A DNA stretch of 64,000 nt, taken from contig OX597823.1 of assembly GCA_951406725.2 (NCBI GenBank), forward strand, positions 53,692,001 to 53,756,000, in the 5' to 3' direction. Of the stretch, positions 9,804-60,842 are shown in pieces. The DNA is from Octopus vulgaris (taxonomy: Eukaryota). The stretch's first letter is position 1; each line of letters opens with the position of its first letter. Under the pieces are notes generated by a model. The model was not told where the DNA came from, ran no database searches, and worked only from the letters and a program-made list of their open reading frames with translations. The translations under genes were made by a program, and so were the position numbers.

Positions 9804-12270
9804 AAGGTGGCGAGCTGGCAGAAACATTGGCATGCCAAGTGAAATGCTTAGCAGTATTTCGTCTGTCTTTACATTCTGAGTTCAAATTGCACCGAGGTCG
9901 ACTTTGCCTTTCATCTTTTTGGAGTCGATAAATGGAGTACTAGTTGCATACTGAGGACAATCTAATCGACAGGCTCCCCCACCCCAAAAATTTCAGGCCT
10001 TGTGCCTAGAGAAGAAAAGAATATTTATTAAAAACAAATTTACTTATTTACAAAATCTTCAAATTTTCTTAGTGAAGTTGCTCTGGGCCCATAATCTACT
10101 CTCTATTATGTAGTTATTAATTTTTAAATGCTTAAGGTGGTGCTTCAGCATGGCCACAGCTAAATGACTGAAGCAAGTAAAAGAATATTATGTATGTCTT
10201 ATATGCAACAGGATTTTTTTTTGTTAACACTATACATTATTTCATTTGCAATAGTTACCATCTCAGAATGTCTTTATTTCCTCCTTTGAATCCAAAGAAA
10301 GGTTTAATCACAGTTACAGCATTGTTAATAGAAGGAATTATCCAAAGGTTATAATCAAGAATTTGGCATATGGAATCTCAAAGACTTAATCTTTGACAAT
10401 TATGACAGAACTAAACAAATTTTTAAAAAAAAGAACCATTATTAATAGTTAGACTCAATCTCGACAAATCTATATTCATTTGAATGACATTAGGCTGATA
10501 TTAATTCATTAATTATAAATAAAATTTTCAAAATACCATTTTGAATATATTTAGTTTTGTCTTATATCTTCTTTTTATTATTAGTATTGTTATTATTATT
10601 ATTCCCCTACCTAATTTTATAATGTTACTTACATAACAATTGTTGCTATTATTAAGGGTGTATAAGGCAGCGAGCTGGCAGAATCATTAGCACACTGGAC
10701 AAAATGCTTAGCAGTATTTCACCTGTTGCTATGTTCAGAGTTCAAATTCCTCCAAGGTCGATTTTGCCTTTCATCCTTTCAGGGGCGATAAATTAATTAC
10801 CAGTTATACACTGGGGTCGATGTAATTGACTAGCCCCCTCCCCCCAATTTCAGGTCGTGTACCTATAGTGGAATGGATTATTAAGGGTGTATAAGGTGGG
10901 CAAGCTGACAGAATCATTGGCATGCAGGGCAAAATGCTTAGCACCATTTCATGTCTTTACATTCTGAGTTCAAATTCCATTGAGGTCAACTTTGTCTTTC
11001 AGCCTTATGGGGTTGATAAAATAAGTACCGGCTGAGTACTGGGGATCGATGTAATTCAACTTATCCCCTCCCCCAAAGTTTCTGGCCTTGTGTCAAAATT
11101 TGAAATCATTATTATTTTTTTTCTCGGTTATAAATGATTTCCTTTATGTTTCATTGTCTTCCAAGGGTAGTGGATTAATTAAATTAGAAGAGCATTGAAA
11201 ATAAAAAAAACTCCCAAATCAATGCCTAGTGTTTTTTTGTTTTTTTTTTAATTAAGAGCTCTTTATGTCCTGAGTTCAAATCCTTTGTAAGTTATCTTTG
11301 ACATTCATTCTTCAGGTTGGGCAGATTGATAAAATAAAATAAATACATTCCTTTTTACTTTGAATTCTGAGCCCTTGTGCCAATTATAGAAATTGTTAGT
11401 TCTTGTCTTCTACCATTATCAGAAGTTCCTTCTTCTAAAGTGCTGCCAGTATCATTAGCACACCAGACAAAATAATTGGCAGCATTTTTCCAGCTATTTT
11501 ACTTTCTGAGTTCAAATTCCACAGACATCGACTTTGTCTGTCATCCTTTTGGGGTCAATAATATATGTACCAGTTGTGTACAGGTGTCAGTGTAAGCAAC
11601 TTACCCCTCCCCAAAAATTGCTGGCCTAGAACCAAAATTTTAAACTATTATTATTATTTTTCTTGGTAATGAATGATTTCTTTCTAACTTTTCTCCTTTC
11701 TAAGTTCAAATTCCACAAACATCAACTTCACCCTGTCATCCCTCAATAATATAACTACCTTTCAAGCACTGGGGGTCATTGTAATCGACTTGTCCCCTTC
11801 CCTCAAATTTCAGGCTGTGTGCCTATAGTAGTAAAGATTATTATTAGTATGTACACAAAGGCAACAAGCTGACAGAATCATTAGCACGCCAGGTGACATG
11901 CTTAGTGGTATTTCATCTGTCATCATGTTCTGAGTTCAAATGCCACTGGGGTTGACTTTGCCTTTCATCCTTTCAGGGTCAATAAACTAAGAACCAGTTA
12001 CGCACTGGGATCAATGTAATCAACTGGTCCCCTCCCCAAAAATGTCAGGCCTTGTGCCTATAGCAGAAAGGATTATTAGTATCTGACAAAATACTTTGCT
12101 GCATTTCTGCTTGTTCTTTATCTTCTGAGTTCATATCCTATTAATGTCAACTTTGCATTTCATCCCTCCAAGGGTCAATAGAATAAATAAAGCATCTATC
12201 AGGGCTTGGAGTTGATTTCATCAAAGAATCTCTCCCACAAAATTGCTGGTTGTGTGCCTACTTTAGAGAC
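9804..12270 (+). mobile_element. Cluster of about 7 same-orientation copies of tRNA-derived SINE family A (CpG-decayed)
   Basis: Recurrent head aagg(c/t)ggcgagctggcagaa, B-box-like gagttcaaattcc, core ctttgcctttcatcctttcggggtcgataaa and tail ccttgtgcctatagtagaaaggattatt at about 9804, 10665, 10893, 11445, 11700, 11858 and 12085. Confidence 0.85.
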
Positions 12271-17997: not shown

Positions 17998-18612
17998 TAA
18001 GGTGGATGAGCTGGTAGAACCATCAGTGTTTTTGGATAAAATGCATAATGGCATTTCTTCTGGAGCTTTATGTTCTGAATTCAAATTCCATCGAGGTCGA
18101 CTTTGCTTTCACTTTTATCCTTTTGGGGTTGATAAAATAAGTACTAGTTGAGCACTGGGATGAATATGACTGAGCAGATCCCCACCCTCAAAATTTCAGG
18201 CATTTTGCTTATTGTAGAAAGGATTATTAATATTATTATCCTTTAGGAGTAGATAAAATAAGCATTAGTCAAATATTGAGGACAGTGTTATCAACTAACA
18301 ACCACCTCCTTTCAAAATTACTGGCCTTGTGCAAGAGGTTTTGAGCTGACAGAAACGTTGGTACATAAGAAAAAATGCTTAGCAGTTTTTCTTCTGTTCC
18401 TGTATGTTTCAAGTTCATATTCCACCGAAATTGACTTCACTTTCCGTCTTTTCAAGGTCGATAAAATAAGTACCTGTTGAGCACAGGGGTTGATGTAATC
18501 AACTAAAACTTTCCTCCAAAACTCTAGGTCTTGTGCCTATAGTAGAAAGAATTATCATTATTATTATTAATATATTATTATTATGATTATTATTATTATG
18601 ATTATTATTATG

Positions 18613-18676
<64 letters not shown>

Positions 18677-18944
18677 GTAAGGTGTTGAGCTGGCAGAATC
18701 ATTAGCATGCCAGGTGAAATGCTTAGCAGTATTTCATCCATCTTTACATTCTGAGTTCAAATTCCGCCAAGGTCGACTTTGCCTTTCATCCCTTTGGGGT
18801 TGATTAAATAAGTACCAATTACACACTGGAGTCGATGTAATTGACTTAATCCCCTCATACTCAGTTGCATACAGAGTCAATCTAATCAACTGGCCCTCTC
18901 CCACAAAATTTCAGGCCTTGTGCTTATGTTAGAAAGGATTATTA

Positions 18945-18987
<43 letters not shown>

Positions 18988-19245
18988 TATTATTATTATC
19001 ATTATTATTAGTAGTAGCATTATTTTTAAAGTAGTGAGTTGGCAGAATCATTAGCACGCTAGTTGGAATGCTTAGCAGTATTTTTATTGTCACTATGTTC
19101 TGAGTTCAAATTTCGCTGAGGTTGACTTTGCCTTTCATTTTTTGGGGGTCAGTTAAATAAGTACCAGTTATGCACTGGGGACAATGTAATCAACTTCTCC
19201 CTTCCCTCAAATTTCAAGCCTTGTGCCTATTGTAGAAAGGATTAT
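17998..19245 (+). mobile_element. Cluster of 4 or more same-orientation SINE-A copies separated by (ATT)n
   Basis: Copies start at about 17998, 18340, 18678 and 19030; CpG sites mostly converted to TG/CA. Confidence 0.85.
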
Positions 19246-19277
19246 CATTATTATTATTTTCATCACTATCATCATTG

Positions 19278-23399: not shown

Positions 23400-23499
23400 N
23401 NNNNNNNNNNNNNNNNNNNNNNNNNNNNNNNNNNNNNNNNNNNNNNNNNNNNNNNNNNNNNNNNNNNNNNNNNNNNNNNNNNNNNNNNNNNNNNNNNNN
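23400..23499. other. Assembly gap (100 N)
   Basis: Exactly 100 Ns, a common placeholder for a gap of unknown size. Confidence 0.99.
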
Positions 23500-34735: not shown

Positions 34736-34876
34736 CGACGGGCTACTTTCAGTTTCCATCTACCAAGTCCACTCACAACTCTTTGGTCGGCCCGAGGCTT
34801 CAGTAGAAGACGTCTACCCAAGGTGTCACGCTGTAGAACTAAACCCGGAACCATATGGTAAGGAAACAGGCACGCC
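34430..34876 (-). mobile_element. SINE-B copy with internal (CA)n
   Basis: Reverse complement of family B motifs (gactgcggccatgctgg, taagttacggggacgtaaa, cccaaggtg.cacgc). Confidence 0.75.
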
Positions 34877-35122
34877 TGATTCTATGTACGTTTATTTTAC
34901 TGTATTAATCTTGACTTGTTTATCGCGTCTCTTTCCGTTAAAATCAATTTTATATATTCTTTACACAGAAGACGGGAGTTTTTTTTTTCTATTTTACAAA
35001 TTATATTGCATCGATTCCCGTTATATCTACAGAATATCTGTTAGTATGCATATTCATTTTTTGTATGTGTGTGTACGCATACATATGTGTGTGTGTCTAT
35101 TTATATTTATACACACAGAGAG

Positions 35123-46153: not shown

Positions 46154-46181
46154 TAATCATTATTATTATCATTACTATTAC

Positions 46182-46223
<42 letters not shown>

Positions 46224-46224
<1 letters not shown>

Positions 46225-46713
46225 GAGTGAGTGAGAGAGCAGCGCATGACATCAAAGTGACACTGGGGTACAAATATACAAAACCCAGTATACTCATTAT
46301 AACTACTCGTTTGATAAAGGGATGCTAGGCACATGCATCACAGCCATATGTACGCGATATGGTGATTTTGTATCAAGATAAATAGCGCATGACCTAGCAG
46401 GTGGAGCCCAATTAGAATTTTCTTCAGGTCGAGTAGCTCATCCCGCTCAAAAGGTCCCTGAATAAGAGTTGTTTAAAGATGATGAACAAAACACCCATGT
46501 TTCCAGAGACGAATTATTCAAACCTCAAAGAATTCCTCTCAACACATGACTATGGTACTCCCCCGCTACTCCTGCACGGGATCAGAGATACACATATCAT
46601 CAGCCACTAAAGGAAATGCTCAACTGCTTAAGGTCAAGCAAATGACAAGCAAATCTGTGGTATTGAGCAGAGTATTTGCTATAGCCCATCCTTTATTCCA
46701 AAACAAAACAATG
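46224..46713 (-). mobile_element. About 500-bp non-coding (TAA)n-associated retroelement, copy 1
   Basis: Homologous to the copies at 46990, 48468 and 50233; 3' end abuts (TAA)n. Confidence 0.8.
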
Positions 46714-46918
46714 TACTGCGCTTACATAATTTTAAGAATGTGTTATTACATTTAATTCCGGATCTAAATGAATGAATGTGCCCTGTACATCTAACCGTAA
46801 ATATGTTTCTAGTCAAGCAAATTTACAAGTTTTCACTGTCTAGTCTCCTAATTCATTAGTTCTAGACACAGGACCGATGATTAAGGTAGAAGAGTAATTT
46901 ATTGTTTCAAATCACATG

Positions 46919-46957
<39 letters not shown>

Positions 46958-46989
46958 TATAATAATAATTATAATAATAATAATAATAA

Positions 46990-47497
46990 CTGATTGGAAG
47001 TGTTATCGTGTACATTGTTTTGTCTTGGTATAAAAGATGGGCTACAGCAAATATTCTGCTCAATACCACAGATTTGCTTGTCGGTTGTTTGACCTTAACC
47101 AGTTGAGCATGTCCCTTAGTGGCTGACGATATGTGCATCTCTGATCACGAGCAGAAGTAGTGCGGGAGCATCATAGCCATGTGTTGAGAGGGATTCTTTG
47201 GGGTTTGAATAATTCACCTCTGGAAACATGGGATGGTTCTTTCAGCATCCTTAAACAACCCTTATTCAGGGACCTTTTGAGCAGGATGGGCTACTCAACC
47301 TGAAGAAAATTCTAACTGAGCCCACCTGCAAGGTCATGTGCTGTTTATCTTGATATGAGATCACCATGTCGCGCACATATGGTTGTGATGCATGTGCCTG
47401 GTGTACCCTTATCAGACGGGTGGTCATGATGGGTATATTGGGCTTCGTATATTTGTACCCCAGTGTCACTTTGATGGCATGAACTGTTCTCTCACTC
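46990..47497 (+). mobile_element. (TAA)n-associated retroelement, copy 2
   Basis: Flanked on both sides by (TAA)n. Confidence 0.85.
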
Positions 47498-47568
47498 AAT
47501 AATAATAATAATAATAATAATGATAATAATAATGATAATAATAATGATAATAATAATAATAATAATAA

Positions 47569-47599
<31 letters not shown>

Positions 47600-47681
47600 A
47601 AGAAGAAGAAGAAGAAGAAGAAGAAGAAGAAGAAGAAGAAGAAGAAATAATAATAACCTTTTCTACTAAAGGCACAAGTCC

Positions 47682-47754
47682 GCCCGCATAGCTCAGTCGG
47701 TAGAGCATCAGACTTTTAATCTGAGGGTCACGGGTTCGACTCCCTCTGCAGGCG
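47682..47754 (+). tRNA. tRNA-Lys(UUU), probably a retroposed copy or pseudogene
   Basis: GCCCGCA TA GCTC AGTCGGTA GAGC A TCAGA CTTTTAA TCTGA GGGTC ACGGG TTCGACT CCCTC TGCAGGC G. D and anticodon arms are canonical; one acceptor-stem (C4:A69) and two T-stem mismatches; T4 tract just downstream. Confidence 0.85.
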
Positions 47755-47860
47755 TACGTTTATTTTAATGGTCGTTTACTGCCGCTTTAAAGGTTAAACG
47801 AAATAAAGAGTATATAAGTAAATAATTCTTGAATCATAATTTATTATATATATATTTCAT

Positions 47861-48213
47861 AGGCGTAGGAGTGGCTGTGCTTACCAACCACATAGTTCCG
47901 GGTTCAGTCCCACTGCGTGGCACCTTGGGCAAGTGTCTTCTACTATAGCCTCGCTCATTGTTTTGGATTAGTCATAGCATTTATGTGTGTGTGTTTGTGT
48001 GTCTGTGTTTGTCCCCCCAACATCGCTTGACAACCAATGCTGGTGTGTTTACGTCCCCGTAACTTAGCGGTTCGGCAAAAGAGACCGATAGAATAAGTAC
48101 TAAGCTTACAAAGAATAAGCCCTGGGGTCGATTTGCTCGACTAAAGGCAGTGCTCCAGCATAGCCACAGTCATATGACTGAAAGAATTAAAAGAATAAAA
48201 GAGTAAAAGAGAG
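47861..48213 (+). mobile_element. SINE family B copy (internally deleted) with aaaagag-type tail
   Basis: Head aggcgtaggagtggctgtg...ccgggttcagtccc; body cgtccccgtaacttagcggttcggcaaaagagaccgatag. Confidence 0.8.
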
Positions 48214-48228
48214 TACTAAAAGTACAAG

Positions 48229-48447
48229 GACTGAAATTTGGGGTGCGGAGACTAAGTGGATTATATTGACCCCAGTGTTTCACTGGTACTTAATTTATCG
48301 ACCCTGAAAGGATGAAAGGATGAGGTTGACTTTGCCTTTCATCCTTTCGGGGTCGATATATTAAGTACCAGTGAAACACTAGGGTCGATGTAATCGACTA
48401 GTTCCCGCCCTCAAAATTTCAGGCCTTGTACCTTTAATAGAAAAGAT
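48229..48447. mobile_element. Head-to-head fusion of two SINE-A 3' halves (palindrome centred at about 48325)
   Basis: ...ttatcgaccctgaaaggatgaaagg / cctttcatcctttcggggtcgata...; both arms carry the variant gtgaaacac. Confidence 0.85.
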
Positions 48448-48467
48448 TATTATTATTATTATTATTG

Positions 48468-49020
48468 TGTGAGAGAGCAGTGCATGCCATCAAAGTGACA
48501 CTGGGGTAAAATATACGAAGCCCAATATACCCATCATGACTACCCGTCTGATAAGGGTACACCAGGCACATGCATCACAACCATATGTGCGCGACATGGT
48601 GATCTCATATCAAGATAAACAGCACATGACCTTGCAGGTGGGGCTCAGTTAGAATTTTCTTCAGGTTGAGTAGCCCATCCCGCTCAAAAGGTCCCTGAAT
48701 AAGGGTTGCTTAAGTATGTTGAAAGAACCACCCATGTTTCCAGAGGTGAATTATTCAAACCCCAAAGAATCCCTCTCAACACATGGCTATGATGCTCGCC
48801 CACTACTTCTGCTCGTGATCAGAGATGCACATATCATCAGCCACTAAGGGACATGCTCAACTGGTTAAGGTCAAACAACTGACAAGCAAATCTGTGGTAT
48901 TGAGCAGAATATTTGCTGTAGCCCATCTTTTATACCAAGACAAAACAATGTACATGATAACACTTCCAAGCAGTTAAGATCAGAAGCCATGAGAGCCACT
49001 GCCTGGTACTGCATCAGGGC

Positions 49021-49023
<3 letters not shown>
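48468..49023 (-). mobile_element. (TAA)n-associated retroelement, copy 3 (longest)
   Basis: Flanked by (ATT)n on both sides; extends further 5' than the other copies. Confidence 0.85.
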
Positions 49024-49053
<30 letters not shown>

Positions 49054-49629
49054 CACACATATGATTTGAAGCAATCAATTATTCTTCTACATTAAATATC
49101 GTTTCTGTGCCTAGAACGAATGAATGTAGAATTGGTAGACTAGACAGTGAAAACTGTAAATTTGCTTGACTGGAAACACACTTAAGGTTAGATATACTGG
49201 ACACATTCATTCGTTTAGATTCAGAATTAAATGTAATAACACATTCTTAAAATTATGTAATCGTACACTTTACTACAATCTAATATGTACATGTGTCTGT
49301 GTAGCGTATGTTTGTATGTTGTTGTTTTTGCTATTGTTTAACCCTAAATCACCCTCATTGAGCTGATAAATGACCAAGAGCAATCCTATCGTAACCATCC
49401 AATATTTGTTGTTTTAATGTCCTCCAAATTATTCAACTTCTTTCCTTTTTTAAGCTGCTACAGTATGACGGGAAGGAAATCTGGTCGCTATTGTGTAAAA
49501 GGTAAAGTGACTATACATAGACACCCCCGTTAGCTCGTGTGTATGTCTGTGTGAGTGTGCGTGTTTTGCGTGACATGGTACTATTTTCTGTCAGATTGAC
49601 TAATGAATTATGTCTCTTTAACTACTTAC

Positions 49630-50217: not shown

Positions 50218-50232
50218 CTCAACAACAACAAC

Positions 50233-50468
50233 TCTTATTCACGGACCTTTTGAGTGGGATATGCTACTCGACCTGAAGAAAAGTCTAACTGGACCCCACC
50301 TGCAAGGTTTTGCACTGTTTATTTTGATATGAAATCATCTTGTTACGTGCATATGGTTGTGGTGCATGTACTTGGTATACCCTTATCGGAAGAGTAGTCA
50401 TGATGGGTATACTGGGCTTCGTATATTATACCCCAGTGTCACTTTGATGGCACGCACTGCTGTCTCAC
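50233..50468 (+). mobile_element. (TAA)n-associated retroelement, copy 4 (5'-truncated)
   Basis: 3' half only, between (TAA)n tracts. Confidence 0.8.
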
Positions 50469-50489
50469 TAAATAATAATAATAATAATG

Positions 50490-50538
<49 letters not shown>

Positions 50539-50553
50539 TAATAATAACAACAA

Positions 50554-51390
50554 CATATTAAAGAACGGCAGTAGCCCAACATGTCGTGTATGCCGACAAC
50601 AAAATGAAACCATTGACCATGTTGTCTCCAAATGCAGTCTTCTAGCGCCTACAGAGTACCTCAGTAGGCATGATAGAGCTGCACAATATATTCACTGGGT
50701 AATTTGCAAAAACCTGGATTTGCCTCATGAAAAAAACTGGTGGGAACACAATCCACCTCCAGTGCTTGAAAATGACCACATCTCACTCCTCTGGAACTTC
50801 ACCATTCAAACTGACAGGAAGATAGATGAAAATAGGCCAGACATCATATTGAAAGACTTCAGACAAAGAACATGCCTCCTCATTGATATGACTGTCCCAA
50901 TCGATATAAACGTATCTGTCAAGACCTACCAAAAACTGAGCAAATATAAAGATCTTGAAATAGAAATCAGCAAAATGTGGAAGCTGAAGACTAAAACAAT
51001 ACCTGTTGTCATAGGTGCCCTGGGAATGATAGCGAAAGGGACTGATTGCTACCTAACTCAAATACCAGGAAACCCCAAAATGGCGGAAATTCAAAAGATA
51101 GTGCTCATGGGAACTGCTCATATCCTACGCAAAATACTCTCTATGTAATCCCAAGGTTTAAAACAAACTTTTTTTTATTTTTTTAATTTTTAATTTTTAT
51201 CTTTTATTTATTTTATTTTTTTTATTTTTTATTTATTTATTTTTTATTTTTATGTATTAGACATTCACTAGTACAACACCAAAAAAAAAACCCAAATATA
51301 TGGCACAGAACTTCCAACCTGTTGTCTCTTGAGGTCTCTGGGTGAGACTTGGAGCCAACTTGTACAGACATAAAGCAAAAGTCAAACATA
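50554..51390 (+). mobile_element. 5'-truncated Dong/R4-like LINE: CCHC finger + restriction-like endonuclease + 3'UTR
   Basis: CRVC...ETIDHVVSKC, RHD, RPDII...LLIDMTVP, KLSKYKDL, IPVVIGALG; open to the stop at 51148; (TAA)n on both sides. Confidence 0.92.
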
Positions 51391-60231: not shown

Positions 60232-60842
60232 ATATTGGTTTCAAATTTGGCACGAGGTCAGCAATTTTTGGAGAGGGCTTAAGTCAATTACATCGACTCC
60301 AGCGATCTACTGTTACTAATTTTATCGACCTCGAAAGGAATGAAAGGCAAAGTGGACCTCGGCGGAATTTGAACTCAGAACGTAAGGACGGACGAAATGC
60401 CTATTTCTTTACTAATCACAGAAGGGACGAACAAGGACAGACAAGGGGATAAACACAGAGGGGACGAACAGGGACAGACAAATGGATTTAGTCGATTATA
60501 TCGACCCCAGTGCGTAACTCGTACTTATTTATCGACCCCGAAAGGATGAAAGGCAAAGTCGACATCGGCGGAATTTGAGCTCAGAACGTAGCGGCAGACG
60601 AAATGCCTATTTCTTTACTACCCACAAGGGGATATAAACACATAGGGGACAAGCAAGGACAGACAAACGGATTAAGTCGATTATATCGACCCCAGTGCGT
60701 AAATGGTACTTATTTAATCGACCCCGAAAAGATGAAAGGCAAAGTCGACCTCGGCGGAATTTGAATTCAGATCGTAACGGCAGACGAAATACGACTACGC
60801 ATTTCGCCCGGCGTGCTAACGATTCTGCCAACTCGTCACCTT
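60232..60842 (-). mobile_element. Tandem SINE-A trimer (one head, repeated headless units)
   Basis: Junction gacgaaatgcctatttctttacta at about 60391 and 60597. Confidence 0.85.

Follow-up and report, generated by a model that had tools for sequence, protein, structure and literature searches.

A tRNA-Lys copy and a SINE-B apparently retroposed as one unit into a SINE-A tail of Octopus vulgaris

In a repeat-rich 64-kb stretch of Octopus vulgaris DNA (34% GC; hereafter the window), we found a tRNA-Lys(UUU) copy, an AT-rich trailer and a SINE-B element arranged as a single cassette within the tail of a SINE-A (Table 1). Because this cassette is bracketed by one pair of direct repeats, has ends resembling those of an RNA, shows no internal duplications and has an empty paralogous site nearby, its retroposition in a single event appears well supported, as a preliminary description of the locus had proposed. 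Its likely source, which we hold with modest confidence, would be a Pol III transcript that read through from a tRNA gene into a neighbouring SINE-B, that is, a 5' transduction driven by the tRNA gene.

Table 1. Features of the cassette and of the locus that hosts it, in window positions
Feature	Position	Strand	Basis or remark
Host SINE-A 3' end and (TTA)n tail, left of insertion	47647..47663	-	Alignment with other SINE-A tails
Target-site duplication, 5' copy, 15 bp	47664..47678	+	13/15 with 48214-48228; single in 13/13 other aligned SINE-A tails
3-nt leader ahead of tRNA	47679..47681	+	A few further nt may hide within the repeat
tRNA-Lys(UUU) copy, likely pseudogene	47682..47754	+	ARAGORN; Rfam RF00005
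AT-rich trailer, 107 nt	47755..47861	+	Likely 3' flank of source tRNA gene
T3-A-T4 run, Pol III terminator-like	47759..47766	+	5 nt past discriminator
SINE-B: head, altered middle, conserved 3' part, tail	47862..48213	+	5' boundary approximate
28-nt segment in place of SINE-B middle; contains T4 at 47961	47954..47981	+	
SINE-B simple-repeat tail: three 8-9-nt units and GAGAG	48184..48213	+	Abuts 3' repeat
Target-site duplication, 3' copy	48214..48228	+	
Host SINE-A, remainder up to inverted-duplication tip	48229..48320	-	
SINE-A tail of opposite arm, with uninterrupted (empty) site at 48425-48439	48321..48457	+	
Inverted duplication hosting the cassette; arms 46719-48320 (minus insert) and 48321-49263	46719..49263	.	

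The insert (47679-48213, 535 bp) comprises a 3-nt leader, the tRNA-Lys(UUU) sequence, its trailer and the SINE-B with its tail. Its coordinates and flanking repeats were given correctly in the preliminary description: the two 15-mers are identical at 13 of 15 positions, and the match stops there with no extension. As a measure of chance, direct repeats this good (13/15, at a distance of 535 bp +-3 nt) were counted across the window: 4 of 37,457 positions outside low-complexity sequence have one, and 493 of 62,367 do when simple repeats are included. The unit's first base lies 3 nt ahead of the tRNA and its last belongs to the SINE tail, the positions at which an RNA would start and be primed. 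Two features of target-primed reverse transcription are present, namely a duplicated target sequence of which the empty site has one copy and a simple-repeat tail abutting that duplication, and the duplication also encloses upstream sequence that is not part of the element and has no duplication of its own, as in 5' transduction. The tail unit carries on into the 3' repeat for two bases, a weak sign that priming may have involved annealing. Separate duplications around the tRNA and SINE-B, named earlier as the observation that would speak against joint movement, were looked for around SINE-B, the tRNA, and the tRNA plus trailer, and none was found within the slop tested, a search that short or decayed duplications could escape. 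No partner LINE sharing the tail was found in the window among the 10 of 129 ORFs scanned. A weak zf-RVT match in an open frame at 50552-50641 (E 0.0005, below the curated cut-off) is likely a LINE fragment, and is not related to the tail.

The flanking 15-mer belongs to the SINE-A tail, and it occurs once in all 13 of the other tails that we aligned, which were chosen by hand from about 30 SINE-A matches because they extend into the tail; the right-arm tail described below is among them. The host SINE-A itself forms part of an inverted repeat structure, as one arm of a duplication of ~0.9 kb, a feature absent from the preliminary description. When the insert is taken out, the left arm is 87.0% identical to the right arm over 123 nt, and the next-best full-length tail reaches 81.3%. 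The right arm carries the target site once and uninterrupted, 200 bp from the cassette. Position 6 of the site is A in both repeats and in the right arm; it is T in 7 of 8 tails of the same subtype (the eighth has A and an inserted base) and in 5/5 tails of a second set. Moreover, each of the three sites, that is, the two repeats and the right-arm site, deviates by one base from their majority, and together with the shared A this indicates that both repeats derive from this locus. Most simply, then, the insertion would have taken place here after the inverted duplication, with the right arm as a stand-in for the empty allele; conceivably, the right arm instead lost its insert by recombination between the repeats.

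The inverted duplication folds back on itself (46719-48320/48321-49263) around a tip that is asymmetric and measures about 14 nt. Matches of this palindrome tip to miRNA families were far below gathering scores and were set aside as reflecting the hairpin only. The arms are 88.5% identical in their outer parts and 87.5% in the SINE-A tails, and 97.2-97.5% identical over an inner element of ~500 bp. The higher identity of this element may go back to two separate young insertions at homologous (AAT)n runs, or else the arms may have exchanged sequence by gene conversion. Four copies of this element lie within 4.4 kb (46156-46716, 46987-47497, 48467 to about 49000, 50227-50470), each flanked by (AAT)n runs, and the rest of the window lacks it. 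SINE-A tails on the same strand also occur in dense runs, at 9894-12090 (at least 6) and at 18093-19262 (at least 5). The assembly contains a gap of 100 N at 23400-23499.

The tRNA-Lys(UUU) sequence is the only tRNA gene called in the window, by ARAGORN and by a match of 59 bits to RF00005. The preliminary description called it complete, which is correct for its length. Its stems are imperfect: pairing is 6/7 in the acceptor stem, 4/4 in the D stem, 5/5 in the anticodon stem and 3/5 in the T stem, so that three pairs are broken and the fully paired cloverleaf of a functional tRNA-Lys(UUU) gene is missing, with a fold z-score of -1.0. The A box (47689) and the B box (47733) are both intact, at a spacing of 44 nt. 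A pseudogene is more likely here than an added gene. As described earlier, the insert begins 3 nt ahead of the tRNA, and CCA is absent past the discriminator. In eukaryotes, CCA is not part of the tRNA gene, and therefore its absence excludes only a retrocopy of a mature tRNA.

The trailer, previously estimated at about 105 nt, measures 107 nt at 21% GC. An earlier reading of a T4 terminator was right in that a terminator-like run is present 5 nt past the discriminator, and has to be amended in that the run is T3-A-T4 and that a further T4 lies at 47961; there is no T4 at the 3' end of the trailer. With a terminator-like run where a tRNA gene would be expected to have one, and no T4 at its end, the trailer looks like the ordinary genomic flank of a tRNA gene. 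Further copies of the tRNA, of the trailer or of the 28-nt segment were sought in the window and none was found. An exact 30-nt pattern from the trailer had 0 matches in metagenome contigs, a result that is uninformative as it lacks a control that the collection includes this organism.

SINE-B does end in its simple-repeat tail, as had been noted: three GA(A/G)T(T)AAAA units followed by GAGAG directly adjoin the 3' repeat. The element is also shortened in its A-box region and replaced in its middle, neither of which had been described. A B-box-like motif of its head is found at 47901, about 16 nt are gone from the A-box region, and the distance from A to B box is 29 nt, compared with 45 nt in the sole intact copy of the window. 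Such a head suggests that the element may have depended on the tRNA promoter. We rejected the shortening as a specific mark of promoter takeover, since two of the three head-bearing copies in the window share it (34825-34895 on the minus strand and 47862-47900, short by 16-18 nt); the A-to-B box distance of the other shortened copy is 27 nt, and either a recurrent deletion or a subfamily may lie behind these heads. For the 28-nt middle, the best match within the window is 19/28, no better than shuffles (17-21). The 3' part shares 148 of 161 positions with its most similar copy in the window. Two 5'-truncated copies (10131-10187 and 61452-61290) keep intact tails, and thus fit a retroposon family moved by target-primed reverse transcription. 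No repeats were evident by eye around two older full-length copies in the window, and a 15-bp duplication as the norm for SINE-B thus lacks support there. Part of SINE-B (48081-48150) is weakly similar (E 0.05-0.4) to SINE-A bodies, e.g. 60482-60533, and this weak similarity suggests that the two may share a domain.

How could tRNA, trailer and SINE-B have come to share one RNA? In our preferred reading, which we regard as fairly probable, the source would be a tRNA gene elsewhere in the genome with a SINE-B 107 nt behind it. Pol III would start at this gene, pass the T3-A-T4 run and continue through the SINE-B; the transcript would escape processing by RNase P and RNase Z, its SINE tail would be recognised by a LINE reverse transcriptase, and copying would run full length, up to the 5' leader. 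A single LINE-mediated insertion into the SINE-A tail would follow, and then decay of the copy. Since the trailer carries the terminator, any route through RNA polymerised by Pol III requires read-through of T3-A-T4. The T4 at 47961 would also have to be passed, unless the segment containing it arose after the insertion. Human Pol III is described as yielding read-through pre-tRNAs with long trailers, and in the same report T4 terminates efficiently in vitro and read-through is very poorly represented (PMC3141230); T3-A-T4 should be at least as strong a terminator as T4. Internal T4 and T5 runs are also described for mollusc SINEs, where they are followed by C, favouring read-through (PMC4758252). 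Here, the runs at 47759-47766 and 47961 are followed by AA and GG, neither by C. The earlier proposal of read-through into SINE-B is the simplest source that we can suggest, though the terminator context is unfavourable to it. Read-through was probably rare, and in that case a one-off copy is easier to account for than a family.

We considered whether the tRNA and the SINE-B could have been joined in another way. A chimera might have formed during or just before insertion, by a template switch from SINE-B RNA to a separate long-trailer pre-tRNA or by ligation with one, and the common orientation and single duplication would fit this equally well. Head exchange in SINEs is commonly attributed to template switching (PMC5786205, PMC4758252, PMC7245038), and tRNA/L1 chimeras with duplications of 9-19 bp exist, although those known are mostly antisense half tRNAs (bioRxiv 10.1101/2025.02.02.635956). 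A chimera would still require read-through of T3-A-T4, and would add to it a second rare step, whereas co-transcription needs no further step. In addition, no T4 run closes the trailer, which in this respect is unlike a pre-tRNA that was terminated and then joined to another RNA. We therefore regard a chimera as quite unlikely. The terminator problem would disappear altogether if a Pol II transcript across the tRNA gene and the SINE-B had been retroposed, because Pol II ignores T runs, and 5' transductions by SVA and L1 are reported to start from upstream Pol II promoters (PMC12593883). It would, however, be a coincidence for 5' truncation to have stopped so close to the start of the tRNA, within 3 nt, and no poly(A) lies behind the SINE tail; such an origin seems highly improbable to us.

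A further possibility is that the cassette belongs to an established multi-copy composite SINE family, in which the tRNA took over from the shortened SINE-B head. The intact tRNA boxes at 44-nt spacing beside a SINE-B head cut to 29 nt would suit such a takeover, the broken T and acceptor stems resemble those of SINE heads, and there is precedent in the Deu-SINEs, whose upstream-fused 5S head replaced a tRNA head (PMC4758252). Yet the tRNA, the trailer and the 28-nt middle are single in the window even though SINE-B has several copies there, the shortened head is shared by two of the three head-bearing SINE-B copies, and loss of the T3-A-T4 terminator would be expected of a family, which makes membership unlikely. 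Origin at the DNA level, either by copying at a staggered break or stepwise, with tRNA and trailer arriving before a SINE-B at their 3' edge, might be suspected at a locus rearranged by inverted duplication. The foreign 28-nt patch in SINE-B could be repair filler, and the absence of CCA suits DNA as well as a pre-tRNA. Both ends of the insert nevertheless coincide with RNA ends (a leader at -3 and a SINE tail), the search for internal duplications found none, and the stepwise version requires SINE-B to have landed on the exact boundary. We regard a DNA-level or stepwise origin as very unlikely.

With respect to age, the two repeats differ at 2 of 15 positions, the SINE-B 3' part has diverged to 148/161 and the tRNA stems have decayed, all of which argues for an old rather than a fresh copy. 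The cassette is most likely a one-off or low-copy retrocopy that decayed later. The preliminary description had seen in it a nascent SINE family and a route of tRNA-gene amplification. With one copy in 64 kb, decayed tRNA stems and diverged repeats, we could uphold neither. A tRNA-derived head with A and B boxes is present, as in composite SINE2 families, and there is one copy in 64 kb; SINE2 elements are characterised by having no strong internal Pol III terminator, and the cassette has T3-A-T4 at 47759-47766 and T4 at 47961. Shares of the queried stretch in 24 public runs (best 0.59) were discarded as evidence on the cassette, as they are explained by repeat content: 353 of the 644 31-mers (55%) lie wholly within repeat or tRNA segments.

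The repeats of the window probably resemble octopus SINEs, among which OK, OR1 and OR2 are tRNA-derived. The Twin SINE of Culex pipiens is reportedly a family for which a Pol III precursor spanning two units was proposed; two tRNA units are joined there, unlike the tRNA and pre-existing SINE joined here. Of the octopus SINEs, OR1 is listed as a CORE-SINE, and it is named in PMC4824008. The SVA 5' transductions (SVA_F1/MAST2) are similar to our cassette in that extra upstream sequence lies within the duplication, brought in by an upstream promoter, and SVA_F1 is described as a transduction unit able to found a subfamily (PMC12593883). In the cassette, by contrast, the upstream promoter is that of a tRNA gene, transcribed by Pol III, internal and carried along in the copy; the joining is by read-through instead of splicing, and one copy is known here. 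Composite SINEs, such as the 5S-headed Deu-SINEs/AmnSINE1, HaSE3, SINE1-1_EBu, the Tu types and GarnAlu, likewise have a Pol III head upstream of a tRNA-derived SINE with a reduced head. They are defined as families by a uniform structure across many copies (PMC4758252, PMC3272025, PMC7245038, PMC5786205); they are of high copy number and are attributed to template switching or recombination, unlike the single cassette, which retains a genomic-looking 107-nt trailer and a terminator. In chimeric U6/L1 and tRNA/L1 retrocopies, too, a small RNA and the 3' part of a retroposon were inserted together, between target-site duplications of 9-19 bp (bioRxiv 10.1101/2025.02.02.635956). In the tRNA/L1 cases, mostly antisense halves are fused directly; here, the tRNA is full length and in sense, with a leader, its partner is a SINE, and the 107-nt trailer intervenes where U6/L1-type chimeras have a direct fusion. 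A search of full-text literature, with few subscription journals covered, turned up no account of a SINE transduced by a tRNA gene ahead of it, and we take this absence as weak evidence of novelty (for context only, see PMC3747384). In summary, the cassette is a variant of known 5' transduction and of composite-SINE formation.

Template switching or recombination is the usual explanation for how SINEs gain their heads, and intermediate stages are seldom observed. The present copy, which retains the leader, the genomic trailer and the terminator, points to read-through as a direct route of head gain, and leads to the testable prediction of a tRNA gene that, at the source, is followed after 107 nt by a SINE-B. 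If the cassette is a lone dead retrocopy, it would be a clean but minor example. tRNA finders count such retrocopies as genes, as the 59 bits obtained here illustrate. Very high copy numbers of tRNA-derived sequences have been reported for the giant squid (PMC6962438). Lastly, in a rather unlikely but conceivable extension of our reading, a tRNA-Lys gene with a leaky terminator would be a source element driving an adjacent SINE whose own promoter is damaged, and tRNA-trailer-SINE composites descended from it would form a dispersed family. The cassette would then be a preserved intermediate, evidence that a composite SINE can acquire its head simply because Pol III reads through, with no need for template switching, and the same route would account for some of the abundant tRNA-like copies of cephalopod-type genomes.
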